A DNA stretch of 64,000 nt from Escherichia phage vB_EcoP-101114UKE3, in sequence record NC_070982.1; one strand, written 5' to 3'. Positions 474 to 46,216 of this stretch are shown piece after piece. Within the stretch, counting starts at the first letter, position 1, and every line of letters starts with the position of its first letter. The notes beneath the pieces are model-generated. The model was given only the letters and a program-made list of their open reading frames with translations, had not been told where the DNA came from and searched no databases. A program made the translations under genes and the position numbers.

Positions 474-600
474 CATGACATGGCCTTTATGGGTATGCCT
501 TAATGTGGGGTAGCCTTTATGAAGTCCCCTTTACTTCAGCGTACATGGGTTTATACATGGGTGGGCCTTTAGATGAGTACGCCTTTATGGGTTGATCACT
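466..600. repeat. Array of about 7 degenerate 14-16 bp direct repeats (core CCTTTATGGGT)
   Basis: Units begin with CCTT(T)A and contain ATG(G/T)GG; ATGGGT recurs near 454, 490, 545, 557 and 587. Confidence 0.45.
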
Positions 601-624
601 CTCGTTTATCAGAGGAGAACAAAT

Positions 625-873
625 ATGTTTCTAGACTTTTTATCAGAGGTACTTCCCTACTTCCGCACTGAGAAATGTGCATTTGTATTTGATGAAGGGG
701 AGGAGTCAATGACTTGTTTGGGTAGATTAGTAGACCTAGACGATGATGAAGATTTTGATGCTACGATGGACATTAGTTCATTGGGCTGGTTGTACATGAG
801 ATGCTTTGTAAGTTACAAGGCTGAAACGTTTAAAGATTATCGCTATAGCGCTGAAGGAGAGAATGATGAATAA
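625..873 (+). CDS. Hypothetical acidic protein (82 aa)
   Basis: ATG at 625 preceded by AGAGGAG; ORF-track frame 592..873 trimmed to the first RBS-supported ATG. Confidence 0.5.
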   Translation: MFLDFLSEVLPYFRTEKCAFVFDEGEESMTCLGRLVDLDDDEDFDATMDISSLGWLYMRCFVSYKAETFKDYRYSAEGENDE

Positions 874-1519
874 TATGACAGGAACTAATACACTGAATGC
901 AATCTATGAGAACATGGGATGTAAAGGCGAGGTTGCTTACAATGGCTCACTCCGTCCTTTATCAGAGGACACTTTCTATCTGAATCGTGTTCATGAAACT
1001 ACTGGAGGTAAATCCCGAGTTGAGATGGTAAAACAACTGGCTCATGGTTCTGTGTACGGTTATGCTCCTTCAACCCGTGAAATATGGGAAGGTTTGATTC
1101 CTCGTACAGAAGCTAAAGATGTGAAAGACTATTTCACTGTAGCAAAAGAAGTTAAACGTAAGTGTCCATCCAATTTAGAAGTTGTTCCGTATGTAGCTGA
1201 CAAACATGCACACCTACCGGACTATGCCCGTGAGATGATTGAGATGATTGAAGAAGCCGAGTATGAAGCTCTGAATAATTATTTAAATTCAAAAGATCAA
1301 TGGTCACGTAATGTAGTAATTGATGAAGAAGGTAATGAAGTTGTAACGTGGGTGCATGTTAGTGAACAAGCTCTGGACCCCGAGCTTGAAGAATACAAAA
1401 AATTTTTGGCGTCCTCTTCTTTTGAGGTAGAGAATGACAAATCTATTCCAGTTGGCTGGGAAGGTGAAACTGTAGCTCTCCAGACTTTGTTCAACCTACA
1501 CGTAGGTGATGTAGATTAA
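863..1519 (+). CDS. Hypothetical protein (218 aa)
   Basis: ORF with AAGGAGAG RBS; start overlaps the upstream stop. Confidence 0.55.
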   Translation: MMNNMTGTNTLNAIYENMGCKGEVAYNGSLRPLSEDTFYLNRVHETTGGKSRVEMVKQLAHGSVYGYAPSTREIWEGLIPRTEAKDVKDYFTVAKEVKRKCPSNLEVVPYVADKHAHLPDYAREMIEMIEEAEYEALNNYLNSKDQWSRNVVIDEEGNEVVTWVHVSEQALDPELEEYKKFLASSSFEVENDKSIPVGWEGETVALQTLFNLHVGDVD

Positions 1520-3725: not shown

Positions 3726-5969
3726 ATGGCTAAGAAGAAATTTAGTGAAGATGTTTTGGATGAATTACGCGTTGACCTTCAACGTCGATTCAATTATGCT
3801 CAAGGTTATGTAGACTTAGCTGTAAAAGGCTATGCTCGTGAGGCTTGGGAATACTTCTATGGGAACCTTCCTGCTCCAGTTACTGCTGGTAGCTCTAGTT
3901 GGGTAGACCGTACAGTATGGGAATCAGTGAATGGTACGCTCCAAGATATCATTAACGTGTTCTGTTCTGGTGACGAAGCGGTAACTTTCGTAGCCGATAA
4001 CCAAGAAGATAGTGATGCTGCTGACGTAGCCACTAAACTTGTCAACCAAATTTTGTTACGTGATAATCCGGGATACAATATTATCTCTTCAGCGGCACAA
4101 GAGTGTCTGGTTACACGTAACTCTTTTATTAAATATTATTGGGATGAACAAACTTCTACCCAAACAGAAGAAGCAGAGGGTGTTCCTCCGGAAGCTTTGG
4201 CTGCATATGTCCAAGGTTTAGAAGCTGGTGGGCTTCAAGATTTAGAAATCTTTACCACTGACAACGAAGATGGTACAGTGGATGTTAAAGTAACTTACAA
4301 ACAAACAGTAAAACGCGTTAAAGTAGAATATGTTCCTTCAGAACAGATTTTTGTTGACGAACATGCTACCTCTTTTGCAGATGCTCAGTATTTCTGTCAT
4401 CGCACACGTAAATCTAAAGAAGATCTGGTTGCTATGGGCTTCCCTAAAGATGAAATTGAAGCTTTTAATGACTGGACTGATACAATGGACACCACTCAAT
4501 CTACTGTTGCATGGTCACGTACTGACTGGCGTCAGGATATAGATTCAGATATCGGTGTAGACACTGATGATATCGCTTCTATGGTTTGGGTTTACGAGCA
4601 TTACATCCGTACTGGTGTACTGGATAAGAATAAAGAAGCAAAACTCTATCAAGTTATTCAAGCAGGTGAGCATATTCTCAGTTGTGAAGAAGTAACTAGC
4701 ATTCCTTTTGTAACATTCTGCCCTTATCCTATTCCGGGTTCATTCTATGGACAATCTGTTTATGATATCACCAAAGATATTCAGGATTTGCGTACCGCTT
4801 TGGTTCGTGGTTATATCGATAACGTAAACAATGCTAACTATGGTCGATATAAGGCGCTTGTAGGCGCGTATGACCGTCGTTCTTTGCTAGACAACCGTCC
4901 GGGCGGTGTAGTAGAAATGGAGCGTCAGGATGCGATTGATCTCTTCCCTTACCACAATCTACCTCAGGGTATTGATGGCTTACTAGGAATGTCAGATGAG
5001 TTGAAAGAGACTCGTACTGGTGTTACTAAGCTTGGTATGGGCATTAACCCTGATGTGTTTAAGAATGATAACGCATATGCAACTGTTGGATTGATGATGA
5101 ATGCTGCTCAGAACCGTCTCCGTATGGTCTGTCGTAACATTGCTCACAACGGTATGGTTGAATTGATGCGTGGTATTTATAATTTAGTCCGAGAAAATGG
5201 TGAGGTTCCTTTACAAGTACAAACCCCTCGTGGTATGGTTCAGGTTCATCCTAAACAACTGCCTGCTCGTCACAATCTACAAGTTGTTGTAGCTATCTCT
5301 CCTAGCGAGAAATCAGAACGTGCACAGAAACTCATTAGTCTGAAGCAATTAATTGCTGCTGATGCTCAGTTAGCACCTCTGTTTACTCTGGAGCAAGATC
5401 GTTACATGACTGCACAGATCTTCGAGTTGATGGGAATTAAAGACACTCACAAATACTTAATGCCTCTGGAACAGTATCAACCGCCAGAACCTTCTCCGAT
5501 GGAAATCCTCCAGCTTGAGATGACTAAAGCACAGGTTGAGAACGTACAGGCTTCTTCTCAGAAGATGATTGCTGATGCATTCGACCAGCGTGAACGTACT
5601 ACGTTTGAACAGCAGAAAGCTGCGGACGAGTTCAGCTTACGTCAAGAAGAACTGCAATTTAAGCAAGAGAATGCTGCTGATCAGATGACTTTGGAGAATC
5701 GTAAAGAAGACAACAGTGCTACACTTGAACAGGCTAAGCACAAGTTGGCTCTGCTCCAGCAACAGGTCCGTCAGTATGAATCTGTACTTAAAGAATTGCA
5801 GATGACTCTTAACCATCAGGTTGATGTTGAGAAAGTTGCAAATCAGGCTAAAATTCAAGATAAGACTTTGGAACTCCAAAAGAAAGAAGCAAATGAAACT
5901 AAGAAAGAACAGCAAAGTTCAATCAAAGATTCACGGATTCCTAACCGTCGTCTTGGTAGTAGAAAATAA
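3726..5969 (+). CDS. Putative portal protein (747 aa)
   Basis: Large protein immediately after the large terminase; coiled-coil Q/E/K-rich C-terminus; RBS GAGGGAGAG. Confidence 0.65.
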   Translation: MAKKKFSEDVLDELRVDLQRRFNYAQGYVDLAVKGYAREAWEYFYGNLPAPVTAGSSSWVDRTVWESVNGTLQDIINVFCSGDEAVTFVADNQEDSDAADVATKLVNQILLRDNPGYNIISSAAQECLVTRNSFIKYYWDEQTSTQTEEAEGVPPEALAAYVQGLEAGGLQDLEIFTTDNEDGTVDVKVTYKQTVKRVKVEYVPSEQIFVDEHATSFADAQYFCHRTRKSKEDLVAMGFPKDEIEAFNDWTDTMDTTQSTVAWSRTDWRQDIDSDIGVDTDDIASMVWVYEHYIRTGVLDKNKEAKLYQVIQAGEHILSCEEVTSIPFVTFCPYPIPGSFYGQSVYDITKDIQDLRTALVRGYIDNVNNANYGRYKALVGAYDRRSLLDNRPGGVVEMERQDAIDLFPYHNLPQGIDGLLGMSDELKETRTGVTKLGMGINPDVFKNDNAYATVGLMMNAAQNRLRMVCRNIAHNGMVELMRGIYNLVRENGEVPLQVQTPRGMVQVHPKQLPARHNLQVVVAISPSEKSERAQKLISLKQLIAADAQLAPLFTLEQDRYMTAQIFELMGIKDTHKYLMPLEQYQPPEPSPMEILQLEMTKAQVENVQASSQKMIADAFDQRERTTFEQQKAADEFSLRQEELQFKQENAADQMTLENRKEDNSATLEQAKHKLALLQQQVRQYESVLKELQMTLNHQVDVEKVANQAKIQDKTLELQKKEANETKKEQQSSIKDSRIPNRRLGSRK

Positions 5970-8976: not shown

Positions 8977-8985
8977 TAATGTATA
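8977..8985 (+). promoter_or_regulatory. Candidate phage promoter element TAATGTATA
   Basis: Exact TAATGTATA 34 nt upstream of the ATG at 9019, just after the capsid terminator. Confidence 0.35.
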
Positions 8986-14700: not shown

Positions 14701-14919
14701 ATGAAAATGATGAAACAGGTAACTTATGGTCTAGCTTGCTTAGGGACAGGTTTTGTGATTTCCACAGCAGTACCTGTAAATGCAGTAGGCTCTCATTCTA
14801 TTATAGAAGCTCCTGTAGAGAAGCTTAGTTCTCAATGTAAACAAAGGACCATTCAAAATAATTTGGTTGTTATTTGCCCAGACGCTCAATCTTCAGCTCT
14901 GAGAAAAATTCTTCCTTAA
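14701..14919 (+). CDS. Small protein with N-terminal signal peptide or membrane anchor (72 aa); holin-like candidate
   Basis: Hydrophobic N-terminus ending VNA; RBS AAAGGAGAAG; sits directly upstream of the lysozyme. Confidence 0.4.
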   Translation: MKMMKQVTYGLACLGTGFVISTAVPVNAVGSHSIIEAPVEKLSSQCKQRTIQNNLVVICPDAQSSALRKILP

Positions 14920-25894: not shown

Positions 25895-25905
25895 TATAAT
25901 GTATA
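25895..25905 (+). promoter_or_regulatory. Candidate promoter element TATAATGTATA
   Basis: TATAAT overlapping TAATGTATA, 37 nt upstream of the ATG at 25942. Confidence 0.35.
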
Positions 25906-32181: not shown

Positions 32182-32770
32182 AGAGTTCTCTCCGTGTCCG
32201 TACAACAATCCAGTTTAAATAATCTACTGCATCTTCTACAGTAGAATTATTCGCTAGGTAGTATGTATTTCTCTGACTACCTTCAATGTAGGAACGAGAA
32301 TCTCCTTTAAAATCACAACCTTCACGAATCACCTGAATTACCTGAACATGGAAATGTTTCTCTAGTTCTTCAACTTCGGCTTTGAACCCACCATCAGAGA
32401 AGACGATAACATCATTCTGTGATGGGATACGTTGTTGAATACTGCTAACAGCAAGTTTACCCATGCAGGTCTCACCAAACATAGGCTTCAGGTAATTCTC
32501 GCTAGTTGCAATCATCAAGTCTCGAACTGACTTACCGTCCCATTCAGGACGGCTATGTTCTTTCCACTCACGATCGTTGTACAGCTCCATGAACTCATAA
32601 AGAGGTAGACCTAATGCAGCAGCAGCCACTCGATACATAGGCTCCTTAAAAGCCTTTACATGAGGCCTAAACTCGGTGTTACCAAGTGTTTTCTCTAACC
32701 AAGAATTAGCGATTGTATCTTTACCACAACCCGGTGGTCCATTCAGAATTACTACTAATGGTTTACTCAT
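32174..32770 (-). CDS. P-loop kinase, deoxynucleoside monophosphate kinase-like (198 aa)
   Basis: N-terminal P-loop GPPGCGKDT. Confidence 0.5.
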   Translation of the reverse strand: MSKPLVVILNGPPGCGKDTIANSWLEKTLGNTEFRPHVKAFKEPMYRVAAAALGLPLYEFMELYNDREWKEHSRPEWDGKSVRDLMIATSENYLKPMFGETCMGKLAVSSIQQRIPSQNDVIVFSDGGFKAEVEELEKHFHVQVIQVIREGCDFKGDSRSYIEGSQRNTYYLANNSTVEDAVDYLNWIVVRTRRELYV

Positions 32771-33420
32771 TATTGAATCATCCCTTGAAGATCTTCTTTA
32801 TCAAAGTGCTTCTCTACTACCGCTTCATACAGATCACGATTCTCTGAATAACGACGATAGAAGGTTCCGTGTGAAATTCCCAACTCTTGCTGGATGTGAT
32901 CATGTGGGATGCCGAGAAAGAGCATTGAGAACATGCTTGCCATCTTACGGTTTTCCATAATGTCACTCAGGTCTTGGAAGAAGAAAAAGATTCTAGATTC
33001 CAAGAACGGGTCTCCAGTAGAATCATGCTTATCCATCGCAATCTCTAAAGGACTTTCCCATGAATTCATCTCAGGAGGTCTAAACATATCAGCCTCTGGA
33101 ATAGAGTAGATACGTCGGTCTCCAACTGTCTGGCGATTAGAACGAATCGACCAGATGATATTCTTGACACGATAAGTCATGTGCTCAATATCTTTTTCAT
33201 CAGTGAGCAGAAGTTCTTCTTGCTTTGCAAACACAAAACGCCAAGCGTTCAGTAATACTTCCTGAGCAACATCCTCTGCCTCGTGATAGTCTTTAATGTC
33301 ATACATAAAATACTTATGCACAACTTTCCAATTCTCTCGATAGAATTCATCGAAGGTTGGGTAGTACTTAATAGGTATGCCATGAATACGATAGCGTGTG
33401 GGTGTTGTCTTTTTCTTCAT
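32770..33420 (-). CDS. Sigma-70 family (ECF-like) sigma factor (216 aa)
   Basis: Region 2-like [15 protein letters not shown] and region 4-like [29 protein letters not shown]. Confidence 0.55.
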
Positions 33421-33444: not shown

Positions 33445-33669
33445 TTAAACTACACAGAATAAATACATTGCTGTTTCAGGGGAAGGTATGTGGTCACTAG
33501 GATATCTAACCCTAATCCACTCATCATCTTCTGCTACATAATAAGCCCAATAAGACCCATTTTCATTAATAAAGAACTTGAAGGTACAACCAAAGATTTG
33601 GTTATTGTGTTCCCATACTGCATGAAACTGAGTAACACCTTCTGGTATTGTAAGTTCCGCTCTGATCAT
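33445..33669 (-). CDS. Hypothetical protein (74 aa)
   Basis: ORF whose start overlaps the o-spanin stop. Confidence 0.4.
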   Translation of the reverse strand: MIRAELTIPEGVTQFHAVWEHNNQIFGCTFKFFINENGSYWAYYVAEDDEWIRVRYPSDHIPSPETAMYLFCVV

Positions 33670-33926
33670 TGTATTCCTCTCTCCTTTAGAGCTTTAAGCA
33701 AACCGTTGTGGTTAGCGGCACAGGTTGTATAAGTGTCCTGATACCACTCGAGTGTTGTTGCAAGTGCTACTCCCTGTCCACTCTGAAGTAAAGGGAGGTC
33801 TACATCACATTCAGCTTTTAGGTTTGTTGGTAAGGGCATTAGCTGCCTGCTGTTGTCGCTCGTTGAACAAGCTGACATACTCATCACTAGCACACACATT
33901 GTAAAAAACTGGCTTAGTCTTTTCAT
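33666..33926 (-). CDS. o-spanin candidate (Rz1-like outer-membrane lipoprotein, 86 aa)
   Basis: Signal peptide ending MSAC (lipobox-like), proline-rich mature part with Cys; embedded in the 3' end of the i-spanin gene in another frame. Confidence 0.5.
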   Translation of the reverse strand: MKRLSQFFTMCVLVMSMSACSTSDNSRQLMPLPTNLKAECDVDLPLLQSGQGVALATTLEWYQDTYTTCAANHNGLLKALKERGIQ

Positions 33927-34158
33927 AATGCATCTCTTTGTAAATAGTTTCCGTGTTCTTCTTCCAGTTAGATAAACCAGTCAGAACTTTCTGAGCCACT
34001 TCATCAGCAGCCTTAGCTCTCTCAACCTCAATCTCTTGCTGTTTCTTCTCATGGTCAAGAGCATTACTATCACTTCTGTATTGCTCAAACTTGACACCAC
34101 CAAAGAAAATAATAGCTGTGAAAATAAGAAAGCCTATATTGTTTTGAAGCTTTTCCAT
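33811..34158 (-). CDS. i-spanin candidate (Rz-like, about 115 aa)
   Basis: N-terminal transmembrane helix IGFLIFTAIIFFGGV followed by coiled-coil; ATG at 34158 with GGAG RBS. Confidence 0.5.
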   Translation of the reverse strand: MEKLQNNIGFLIFTAIIFFGGVKFEQYRSDSNALDHEKKQQEIEVERAKAADEVAQKVLTGLSNWKKNTETIYKEMHYEKTKPVFYNVCASDEYVSLFNERQQQAANALTNKPKS

Positions 34159-34171
34159 TTTAACTCCAACG

Positions 34172-34197
34172 AAAAAAGCCACCCGAAGGTGGCTAAG
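34172..34197 (-). terminator. Rho-independent terminator with UUCG loop (minus strand)
   Basis: Minus-strand RNA reads AGCCACC-UUCG-GGUGGCU followed by UUUUUU. Confidence 0.5.
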
Positions 34198-34217: not shown

Positions 34218-34958
34218 TTAGAAAGGGCTGTCATCTTCTTCAAAGGTAGACTGCGGCTCTTCGTTAATAGTAGGGATACTTGGAGTAGCATCTTTCTGTT
34301 CAGTATCAGAAGCTTTAGTAACTTCACGACCAGCCAGAGGGATGTTCTTAGCATCATTAGCTTGGGTCAGAAGATTACGTTGGAATGGGAAGATTGCTTG
34401 ATAAGCAGCCAAGTTAGCATCAGTCTCAGCATACGGTTCGAAGAAGATCAACTCACTACGAGGGGCACCTACAGCATCACGATATTTGGTAGGGATTGGA
34501 GTGATACTCTTAATGGAGTTTTTCTTCTCACCAGCTTTGTTTACATAGGAATTAACCAGAATGTTAACAGGCTGACCTAGCAGCATATCTTTAAACCAAC
34601 CCAAATCACCTTTCAGTGCTTGAACACTTGGGTCGATCATTTTAATCAGATTCAGAATACCAGAGTTCTTAGCTCGTGGGTTTACGTCGAAAGTTTTAAA
34701 CTGGCAAGCAGGACGAGGGTCCAGAGGTTTGCCTTCATTATCAGTCCCTGTTGCATCTACGCCAATCAGCTCAAAAGCTAAGTCCATACGGAAAGCTGGG
34801 TTCTTAGGGGTAACTGCTTTGGTCTTAGGGTCAATCCAAGGGTCACGATTGTGAACACCTAAACCTACAACACGAACAATACGTGCTTCGTACTCACCAT
34901 CAGGGATTACATCGTAGTTGGATTTACGGGATACAGACAGTTCAGGGATCATAGACAT
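34218..34958 (-). CDS. ssb: Single-stranded DNA-binding protein (246 aa)
   Basis: Acidic C-terminal tail EEDDSPF resembling the SSB DDDIPF-type tail; position in the replication module. Confidence 0.55.
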   Translation of the reverse strand: MSMIPELSVSRKSNYDVIPDGEYEARIVRVVGLGVHNRDPWIDPKTKAVTPKNPAFRMDLAFELIGVDATGTDNEGKPLDPRPACQFKTFDVNPRAKNSGILNLIKMIDPSVQALKGDLGWFKDMLLGQPVNILVNSYVNKAGEKKNSIKSITPIPTKYRDAVGAPRSELIFFEPYAETDANLAAYQAIFPFQRNLLTQANDAKNIPLAGREVTKASDTEQKDATPSIPTINEEPQSTFEEDDSPF

Positions 34959-35017: not shown

Positions 35018-35026
35018 TATACATTA
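35018..35026 (-). promoter_or_regulatory. Candidate promoter element TAATGTATA upstream of the SSB gene
   Basis: Minus strand reads GTGTAATGTATATA about 60 nt upstream of the SSB ATG. Confidence 0.3.
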
Positions 35027-35096: not shown

Positions 35097-35372
35097 ATAT
35101 GGTATAGCTAGTAAAGCTATTGCAGGCTTGTATATTGGGCAATCATTGTAACCCTTGCAAGTACCGAAGGGCAGGAGACACCTGCGAGATAAAATAGAGA
35201 ATTAAGGAAATCCTTGATTTAGGTTGTAGGGACTCCTAGGGACTTTGATTCTCTATTTAAAAGAATATTAATTACTTACTACCTAAATAATTAACTAACT
35301 TACTTAAACCAAACTCAAGAATAATAGATAAAAAGATTATTCCTAAGAAAGCTAAAAAGTAAAGGATATAAG

Positions 35373-35993
35373 TTACCATTCAAGTAAACCTTTAAAGTTA
35401 GTTTGTTCTACTATCCTCTGATAAGGTAAGTTAGATTCTGCTTGTTTGCTTAACACCTCTTGTACTTTATCAGTAATTGAATAATCTTTTTGTAATAAAG
35501 AAGCTACCCACTCTTTCCTACTTTCCAGTTCTTTTCTAATCTCTTGCAGAGACACAGCTCTGTAATCAATTTGTTCCATAGAAGTACAGAAGTATCTCCA
35601 ATCTCTGATAGTAGAATTATGAGTATGAGCATAGATATTATACTTTCCTCTCATTTCATCAGAGTGAATAGGAATATGAGTTACCCAAAACTCTTTGTAC
35701 TTATAATCACCACTGATGTGTCTAAAGACTTTCATCATATCAGGGAGAAGTTCTAATCTGTCATGGTTTCCTAAGACAAGATGTTTCTCTCCTTTTACTT
35801 CAGCGATAATATCAAGTGCATATTTCTCAAACACCCAATCACCTGTAAAGAAAGTTTTATCACGTTTAGTAACATGGTCAAACGCTGCTAAGATAGCTTT
35901 GTCGTGTTCTTCAATACTACTAAACTTCTTCCTAAAGTTACAGATGTTACGATGGCCTAGGTGACCATCACCTGCAAAATAAACTTCAGCCAT
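35373..35993 (-). CDS. Calcineurin-like metallophosphoesterase (206 aa)
   Basis: GDGHLGH and GNHD motifs. Confidence 0.6.
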   Translation of the reverse strand: MAEVYFAGDGHLGHRNICNFRKKFSSIEEHDKAILAAFDHVTKRDKTFFTGDWVFEKYALDIIAEVKGEKHLVLGNHDRLELLPDMMKVFRHISGDYKYKEFWVTHIPIHSDEMRGKYNIYAHTHNSTIRDWRYFCTSMEQIDYRAVSLQEIRKELESRKEWVASLLQKDYSITDKVQEVLSKQAESNLPYQRIVEQTNFKGLLEW

Positions 35994-41574: not shown

Positions 41575-41583
41575 TATACATTA
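41575..41583 (-). promoter_or_regulatory. Candidate promoter element TAATGTATA upstream of the basic-protein gene
   Basis: Minus strand reads CATAATGTATACTCC about 35 nt upstream of the ATG; overlaps an 8-bp inverted repeat ACTCCTTA / TAAGGAGT that includes the RBS. Confidence 0.35.
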
Positions 41584-46146: not shown

Positions 46147-46216
46147 AACTCTCTCCTGTTTCATACAATATTCTTATACTGTATATACATTTGAGAGTTA
46201 TCATATCTACTACCAA

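Follow-up and report, generated by a model that had tools for sequence, protein, structure and literature searches.

The genome of an Escherichia phage related to phiEco32 very probably encodes an overlapped two-component spanin. The putative spanin genes occupy positions 33666..34158 of the window (the 64,000-nucleotide stretch of DNA that was analysed), and their function is assigned by homology, topology and synteny. Of the features by which two-component spanins are recognised (Summer et al. 2007; Kongari et al. 2018), four were found at this locus: an i-spanin candidate with a transmembrane segment, an o-spanin candidate with a signal peptidase II lipobox, adjacency of the two genes, and periplasmic cysteines. 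The initial annotation had already read the locus as an i-spanin/o-spanin pair. This reading is supported by the match of the larger protein to a spanin family (PHROG 1152, E 1e-35), by the lipobox of the smaller one, by the LipoP prediction for its homologue in phage Paul, and by the listing of related pairs in Kongari et al. 2018.

The 2-kb segment around the spanin pair displayed 100% identity to Escherichia phage vB_EcoP-101114BS3 and 91-98% identity to phages SU7, Bas86, IME267 and ECBP2. In total, this segment matched 97 records, nearly all of them phiEco32-group (Gordonclarkvirinae) podophages of E. coli or Shigella. The gene order of the window is that of phiEco32. By these matches, the window is assigned to a phiEco32-like coliphage of the Gordonclarkvirinae. 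The two open reading frames correspond to phiEco32 genes 39 (i-spanin) and 38 (o-spanin) and are flanked, as they are in phiEco32, by the gene 40 homologue and the sigma factor gene (Table 1). Downstream of the o-spanin, the window carries a 74-aa open reading frame, whereas phiEco32 and Paul carry a macro-domain (Appr-1-p processing) gene.

Table 1 Features of the predicted spanin locus and of the distant lysis genes in the window
Feature	Position	Strand	Basis or remarks
'Holin' family gene, 72 aa, just 5' of the endolysin	14701..14919	plus	PHROG 11161 holin, E 1e-40
Endolysin, GH24 lysozyme family, 163 aa	14953..15444	plus	PHROG 7, E 7e-46; endolysin annotation in SU7
Sigma factor, gene 36 homologue	32770..33420		phiEco32 gene-order match
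Putative o-spanin, 86-aa precursor, 67 aa mature, ATG start	33666..33926	minus	+1 frame relative to the i-spanin; open reading frame list
Putative i-spanin, 115 aa, ATG start	33811..34158	minus	Open reading frame list; PHROG 1152
Dual-coding overlap, 116 nt (C-terminal 38 codons of the i-spanin, N-terminal 38 codons of the o-spanin)	33811..33926	minus	Open reading frame coordinates
Predicted lipoprotein signal peptide and lipobox, MKRLSQFFTMCVLVMSMSA followed by C	33867..33926	minus	PROSITE-type rule
Empty insertion site of the HNH element	33874..33876	minus	o-spanin codons 17/18, i-spanin Val95/Ser96
Predicted i-spanin transmembrane helix, residues ~8-24, IGFLIFTAIIFFGGVKF	34087..34137	minus	Hydropathy; AlphaFold2 helix 3-24
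Shine-Dalgarno GGAG, 5 nt 5' of the i-spanin ATG	34164..34167	minus	Sequence
Intrinsic-terminator-like hairpin AGCCACCTTCGGGTGGCT with T tract, between gene 40 and the i-spanin	34167..34194	minus	Terminator scan
Gene 40 homologue, 246-aa open reading frame	34218..34958		phiEco32 gene-order match
Candidate gp36-sigma promoter element, TAATGTATA	35018..35026	minus	Pattern search; exact phiEco32 match

The i-spanin candidate matched the family of Rz-like spanins PHROG 1152 (E 1.3e-35). Its N-terminal hydrophobic segment, IGFLIFTAIIFFGGV, reached a Kyte-Doolittle 15-mer mean of 2.47, and a TMpred note in the GenBank entry for phage Paul places a transmembrane domain at residues 8-23 of the homologous protein. 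An AlphaFold2 model, obtained from the single sequence without an alignment and of moderate confidence (mean pLDDT 72), displayed helices at residues 3-24, 33-75, 82-89 and 92-110. The protein would be a type II inner-membrane protein, presumably oriented N-in/C-out, with a periplasmic domain that is helical in the model. This domain contains one cysteine, Cys89, within a conserved FYNVC motif. The transmembrane helix that the initial annotation had proposed is thus supported by both hydropathy and the model. The coiled-coil proposed along with it is supported in part: the domain is predicted to be helical, and the coiled-coil predictions for i-spanins of the phiEco32 group are inconsistent: in the tables of Kongari et al., ECBP2 and NJ01 have a single segment each and phiEco32 has none (PMC6139136). 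A Pfam scan of the protein returned only a sub-threshold match to DUF3290. Regarding the translation start, the same authors give the GGAG motif in Table S1 for all four phages, namely phiEco32, ECBP2, KBNP1711 and NJ01 (PMC6139136). We preferred the ATG at 34158 because it has GGAG 5 nt upstream and is the start given in that table. A GTG at 34182 is an unlikely start, as it is located inside the terminator-like hairpin and without a ribosome-binding site.

The N-terminus of the o-spanin candidate reads MKRLSQFFTMCVLVMSMSA followed by CSTS. Its lipobox is SMSA-C (the hyphen marks the cleavage site), and Cys20 would be the lipidated residue. The PROSITE-type prokaryotic lipoprotein rule is satisfied, matching MCVLVMSMSAC, with K/R near the N-terminus and no charge in the six positions before the lipobox. 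The residue at +2 is Ser, not Asp, which predicts sorting to the outer membrane. The homologue in phage Paul (83% identity by tblastn) is annotated in its GenBank record with a LipoP SpII score of 18.03 and cleavage between residues 19 and 20. The suggestion of a lipoprotein-like o-spanin therefore stands on a valid lipobox with Cys20 and on the prediction for the Paul homologue. The same frame had been described as proline-rich, which is not the case: the mature protein has three prolines in 67 residues (4.5%). Besides the lipidated cysteine, the mature protein contains two further cysteines.

The best family match of the o-spanin candidate was PHROG 2425 (E 6e-25), which is labelled as of unknown function, and it also matched the Rz-like spanin family PHROG 456 weakly. 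By tblastn, homologues were detected in 174 phage records. Among them were phages of Erwinia, Salmonella and Proteus and Sashavirus phages at 31-41% identity, whose records often label the locus a spanin. An o-spanin is annotated in SU7, VTCCBPA_211, IMEP8, ShigP1 and other records. Automated pipelines often skip this gene or start it late: in the RefSeq record of phiEco32 the start of gene 38 is annotated too late, giving 57 aa, and in the records of several relatives there is only a 174-nt 'hypothetical protein'.

The architecture of the pair follows from the coordinates. The two genes have 116 nt in common and a further 145 nt of the o-spanin gene extend past the i-spanin stop (the o-spanin gene ends at 33666 and the i-spanin gene at 33811), hence the pair is overlapped, as in P2 lysB/lysC, and not embedded, as in lambda. 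The initial annotation had used both terms; 'overlapped' is correct, but its 'classic Rz/Rz1 embedded architecture' is not, given the 145 nt outside the i-spanin gene. Within the overlap, a stretch of 68 nt displayed 85% DNA identity to many spanin loci of Felix O1-like phages.

Comparison of related genomes provided insights into the coding status of both frames. The locus was taken from 17 phiEco32-like genomes, down to ~77% DNA identity. These relatives were drawn from an annotated phage collection, and a scan of viral contigs with the o-spanin gave only two loci. Both open reading frames were open in all 17 genomes, and the o-spanin start was conserved. The i-spanin cysteine, the lipobox cysteine and the two further o-spanin cysteines were kept in each of the 17 as well. 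Codon positions were counted in an alignment of the 12 uninterrupted loci. In the part coding for the i-spanin only, 52/77 third positions of the i-frame were variable against 12/77 second positions. In the part beyond the i-spanin stop, which codes for the o-spanin only, variable positions of the o-frame numbered 42/48 at third and 5/47 at second positions (Fisher p 7e-15). This frame-specific variation, together with the intact open reading frames, shows that both frames are coding. The overlap was less variable than the single-coding parts (26/113 versus 156/374 variable sites, p 4e-4), as dual coding predicts. Changes within it fell mostly on position 3 of the i-frame (position 2 of the o-frame), suggesting that the resulting amino-acid changes are absorbed by a tolerant signal peptide. 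Collectively, these patterns point to strong purifying selection on both spanin frames.

In some relatives of the window, the overlap is split. A 545-bp element with an HNH endonuclease gene was found within it in SU7, PAS59, Bas86, Bas87, KM01, EK010 and E20-1, while the window carries the uninterrupted allele. The HNH genes of the element match PHROG 99 (E 1e-48 to 1e-57) and are of two types with 65% identity. The insertion site was placed by aligning the window with SU7 and Bas86 and by k-mer mapping against SU7 and EK010. The element starts with a recoded i-spanin tail, which is VGLFNERQQQAAEALKLKN followed by a stop codon in SU7 and a more diverged copy in EK010. In this way, the insertion carries the i-spanin frame on for 19 codons to a stop of its own, and it also brings a new o-spanin start. 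The 3' end of the element, inside the HNH gene and in another frame, supplies a second signal peptide together with its lipobox, which join the unchanged mature o-spanin. This reads MLTKKKQKSCLVIFLASSLMA-C in SU7 and ends in KKKLLSCTGILLAFSLSA-C in EK010. The replacement lipoboxes are LMAC or LSAC among SU7, Bas86, Bas87 and EK010. Thus, in the natural experiment that these four phages provide, the HNH insertion is tolerated only where the i-spanin tail has been replaced and another signal peptide is supplied in frame. The preservation of both products in these alleles provides independent evidence that both are needed.

The insertion was also considered as a self-splicing intron. This is judged unlikely, as an Rfam scan of the 545 bp (E<=1) detected no group I or II intron and the insertion brings its own i-spanin stop and its own o-spanin start. 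Bas86 and Bas87 carry an intron-like 'join' annotation of the spanin, which is therefore probably incorrect. We lean towards the view that the 116-nt overlap is a recurrent homing site for free-standing HNH genes which bring along a 'repair kit', consisting of a recoded synonymous i-spanin tail and a ready-made lipoprotein signal peptide, so that insertion un-overlaps the genes and neither product is lost. The recoded tail could, in addition, protect its carrier from cleavage. This is reminiscent of the T5 family, in which Kongari et al. described a GIY-YIG homing endonuclease gene lying between those of the i-spanin and the o-spanin (T5 versus Shivani and phiR201; PMC6139136). In both cases the endonuclease separates two spanin genes that had overlapped, and only the tail of the i-spanin and the signal sequence of the o-spanin are changed. 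The cases differ in that the endonuclease is of the GIY-YIG type in the T5 family and of the HNH type in relatives of the window, and in that only in the latter is the new o-spanin signal peptide encoded within the 3' end of the endonuclease gene in another frame.

The predicted spanins do not have the lysis-cassette location that is usual, and not obligatory, for such genes, and the support that gene context commonly lends to a spanin assignment falls away here. The 'holin' family gene and the endolysin gene are found among tail genes on the opposite strand, 18.2-19.2 kb from the spanins, and no spanin-like gene was found after or next to the endolysin in the window. The earlier statement that the pair lies about 19 kb from the lysozyme on the opposite strand, with dispersed lysis functions, is thereby confirmed, the endolysin being 18-19 kb away. 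The 72-aa 'holin' displayed a single N-terminal hydrophobic segment by hydropathy, and according to a published note its homologue in ZCEC16 shows a signal peptide only.

The surroundings of the pair also suggest how it is expressed. Promoters of gp36, with consensus tAATGTAtA, have been mapped experimentally upstream of phiEco32 genes 6, 13, 26, 40, 58 and 68, and the cluster on the minus strand that includes the polymerase and sigma genes belongs to the middle class (PMC8948821). In the window, the element TAATGTATA sits ~60 nt upstream of the gene 40 homologue and is likely the promoter of the operon that holds the spanins. The terminator-like hairpin at 34177..34194, between gene 40 and the i-spanin gene, is conserved and is an annotated terminator in the records of 4E8, WFI101126 and Paul. 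Its T tract runs into the ribosome-binding site of the i-spanin. Because this hairpin is directly upstream, spanin expression needs read-through or another promoter. It is probably provided by read-through from the gene 40 promoter, with the sigma gene following in the same operon. Meanwhile, the holin-like gene and the endolysin gene appear to belong to the late structural operon and the spanins to the middle-gene cluster. According to the established model summarised in PMC6139136, intact peptidoglycan keeps spanins inactive. Separate or earlier expression of the spanins should thus be harmless, since they are inert until the cell wall is degraded.

Much about this family was already on record. 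Kongari et al. 2018 listed phiEco32, ECBP2, KBNP1711 and NJ01 as carrying overlapped two-component spanins, the i-spanins belonging to family 'JH2', which is common to Felix O1-like phages, and the o-spanins to family 'NJ01' (PMC6139136). Their supplementary tables give i-spanins of 115/116 aa, o-spanins of 86 aa with a 19-residue signal, and an overlap of 116 bp for the pairs of all four phages, and the authors found that the o-spanin start needed correction (PMC6139136). The proteins of the window are a few residues off the ECBP2 sequences of their Table S1, and the o-spanin has 91% identity to the ECBP2 locus (tblastn). On this similarity, we assign the pair to the same i-spanin and o-spanin families. 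Pfam and NCBIfam scans of both proteins, lambda Rz/Rz1 families included, gave no usable match, which rules out membership of the lambda Rz/Rz1 sequence families. Two recent Kuravirus papers report overlapping spanins at ORFs 35/36 and the endolysin at ORF16, and in one of them the holin and endolysin genes are placed at ~2.2-2.9 kb, the o-spanin gene being at 21.8 kb on the complementary strand. The genome announcement of phage Paul, which we also checked, does not describe lysis genes. The existence of the spanin pair and how far it lies from the endolysin are thus already known, the distance being undiscussed, and the pair of the window is an ordinary member of a catalogued family, set apart from the endolysin like the pairs of all phiEco32-like phages. 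Our literature search found no experimental report on spanin function in the phiEco32 group, and we know of no complementation test of any spanin from this group.

Other explanations of the locus were weighed against a spanin. The frequent omission or late start of the smaller gene in annotations might suggest that it is an untranslated chance frame and that only the 115-aa protein is real. This explanation is effectively refuted: the frame is open, with its start, lipobox and cysteines conserved in 17/17 genomes at DNA identities down to ~77%, its codon-position pattern is that of a coding frame, and the HNH-insertion alleles rebuild an in-frame signal peptide and lipobox. A more serious candidate, though still quite improbable, is that the +1-frame product is a lipoprotein with another role, such as superinfection exclusion or receptor blocking in the manner of T5 Llp or Cor, and that the 115-aa protein is unrelated to lysis. 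In its favour, PHROG 2425 has no assigned function, neither protein matches Pfam or NCBIfam families, and the pair is located amid middle genes beside the sigma gene instead of in a lysis cassette. However, the partner protein belongs by its match to an Rz-like spanin family, and the +1 overlap of a type II membrane protein with a small lipoprotein is the defining signature of spanins. Moreover, homologous pairs in Felix O1-like, Erwinia, Sashavirus and other phages are annotated as spanins, and the window holds no alternative spanin candidate beside the endolysin.

The pair could also be a functional spanin that is redundant or vestigial, with another factor near the endolysin disrupting the outer membrane. 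The 19 kb that separate the pair from the endolysin would fit this idea, as would the atypical 'holin' next to the endolysin, with its single hydrophobic segment or signal peptide only. We regard this as very unlikely, since both frames are under strong purifying selection, both products survive the disruption of the overlap by the homing endonuclease, and no alternative outer-membrane disruptor was found.

As a two-component spanin, the pair would act as follows; its membrane localisation, complex formation, fusion mechanism and expression timing are those that we infer from the features described above. The spanin genes, situated just upstream of the sigma gene, would be expressed from a different operon than the endolysin and the holin-like gene. 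The i-spanin would insert in the inner membrane via its N-terminal helix, N-in/C-out, with its mostly helical domain reaching into the periplasm. The o-spanin would be exported, cleaved by signal peptidase II, lipidated on Cys20 and, with Ser at +2, sorted to the outer membrane. By analogy to lambda Rz/Rz1, the periplasmic domains would bind each other and form a bridge across the meshwork of the peptidoglycan. The complex may be stabilised by disulfides, given that the i-spanin has one conserved periplasmic cysteine and the o-spanin has two; periplasmic cysteines for intermolecular disulfides are ubiquitous in two-component spanins according to Kongari et al. (PMC6139136). Once the endolysin has destroyed the peptidoglycan, the freed complexes would fuse the inner and outer membranes, completing lysis.

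The closest known systems are those of phiEco32, ECBP2, KBNP1711 and NJ01, which display the same genomic position, 116-nt overlap, protein lengths, lipobox type and cysteine pattern and differ from the window by allelic differences only. T4 is the classic exception to clustered lysis genes, with its spanin genes pseT.3/pseT.2 encoded away from the holin gene t and the endolysin gene e. The pair of the window resembles it in lying apart from the other lysis genes, whereas the T4 genes belong to the separated class instead of the overlapped one and are unrelated in sequence. The lysB/lysC genes of P2 are located in the lysis cassette beside the holin and endolysin genes, while the pair of the window is 19 kb from the endolysin. 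No sequence similarity to LysB/LysC was detected in the family scans. Nevertheless, the architecture is shared, as the o-spanin gene, read in the +1 frame, has its start within the i-spanin gene and runs past the i-spanin stop (class definition in PMC6139136). T4 pseT.3/pseT.2 are shown as the prototype of the 'separated' class in that same work (PMC6139136).

Lambda Rz/Rz1 are similar to the pair in predicted topology, presumed mechanism, +1 frame and periplasmic cysteines. They differ in that Rz1 is encoded wholly inside Rz, while 145 nt of the o-spanin gene of the window lie outside the i-spanin gene. In addition, Rz1 has a conserved penta-proline stretch (Kongari et al. 2018; PMC6139136), unlike the o-spanin of the window with its 4.5% proline. 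The Felix O1-like phage JH2 (Ounavirinae) encodes homologous proteins, at 32% identity for the i-spanin (E 4e-14) and 33% for the o-spanin (E 1e-11), in the same overlapped architecture and with a near-identical signal peptide (MKRLSQ.F.M..L...MS.CSTS). The differences are that Felix O1-like genomes are those of myoviruses and that most of the mature o-spanin has diverged. JH2 has one periplasmic cysteine in its o-spanin, against two in that of the window, and Kongari et al. put the Felix O1-like o-spanin in a different o-spanin family (PMC6139136).

For the window, these findings amount to routine annotation, which corrects the start and class of an o-spanin that is missed or truncated in many records of this phage group. 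The lysis genes of phiEco32-like phages appear to be divided between a late structural operon, with the holin-like gene and the endolysin, and a middle-gene cluster, with the spanins. Such a division matters for the engineering of phages that are widely proposed for therapy and biocontrol, and for automated finders of lysis cassettes that expect adjacency. Wider interest is limited to the HNH element, which is a second example of a homing endonuclease altering spanin gene architecture. If the homing interpretation is true, the 'join' annotation of the Bas86 and Bas87 spanin is wrong, and the element provides a clear example from nature of two overlapping genes being disentangled through partial duplication, with a selfish element as the driver.

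Part of the spanin overlap displayed a DNA likeness to Felix O1-like myoviruses, among them JH2, EC6 and Mordin. Over 68 nt the DNA identity amounts to 79-86%, despite the fact that the spanin proteins of these myoviruses are overall only about 33% identical to those of the window. This suggests either a very strong dual-coding constraint or a past exchange of the segment.

We also observed that, in at least seven related phages, the spanin overlap is interrupted by a 545-bp element encoding a free-standing HNH endonuclease. The element supplies a recoded tail of the i-spanin, as well as a new lipoprotein signal peptide, which lies inside the 3′ end of the HNH gene in another frame. The i-spanin of Bas86 and Bas87 is annotated as a two-piece "join", a layout that would make the element an intron; an Rfam scan found no Rfam intron within it.

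Gene content directly 3′ of the o-spanin differs among relatives. The window, SU7 and IME267 carry a 74-aa ORF of unknown function (PHROG 30479), the start of which overlaps the o-spanin stop (ATGA). This slot is occupied by a macro-domain (Appr-1-p processing) gene in phiEco32, Paul and SGF2, by an NrdA-like fragment in EK010, and by no gene in WFI101126.

Coordinates of features in the window and of the HNH element in related phages
Feature	Coordinates	Strand
Stretch similar to Felix O1-like phages	33860..33927	
Empty insertion site of HNH element	33874..33876	
Region of HNH element, SU7 (locus L001)	3881..4362	
Region of HNH element, EK010 (locus L012)	476..1000	
HNH element, Bas86 (locus L002)		
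HNH element, Bas87 (locus L010)		
74-aa ORF	33445..33669	-
72-aa "holin"	14701..14919	+
Gene-40 homologue	34218..34958	-
35-aa ORF MVTYILYFLAFLGIIFLSIILEFGLSKLVNYLGSK	35272..35379	-
Further site	8978..8985	+
Further site	25898..25905	+
Further site	41575..41582	-
Further site	46184..46191	-

Sites of the kind listed last number six in the window, a count that 7 of 100 shuffles reach and that alone is not above chance.

The 72-aa "holin" (PHROG 11161) displayed two cysteines and a single hydrophobic stretch. The stretch lies at the N-terminus, with VNA|VG after it, and resembles a cleavable signal peptide. In the phage ZCEC16 homologue, too, no transmembrane domain was found (2026 paper). The true holin of the phiEco32-like group may be yet to be found.

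The operon that precedes the gene-40 promoter closes with the 35-aa ORF, which is hydrophobic nearly throughout. It encodes a small membrane protein and is homologous to phiEco32 gene 41.

The gene-40 homologue (246 aa) displayed an acidic C-terminal tail with a terminal Phe (..TFEEDDSPF), similar to the tails of E. coli SSB and T7 gp2.5. It also gave a weak, below cut-off match (E 1e-5) to an NCBIfam family for phage replication initiation. The protein may bind single-stranded DNA or act in replication, and may be highly expressed, which would fit the terminator 3′ of the gene.
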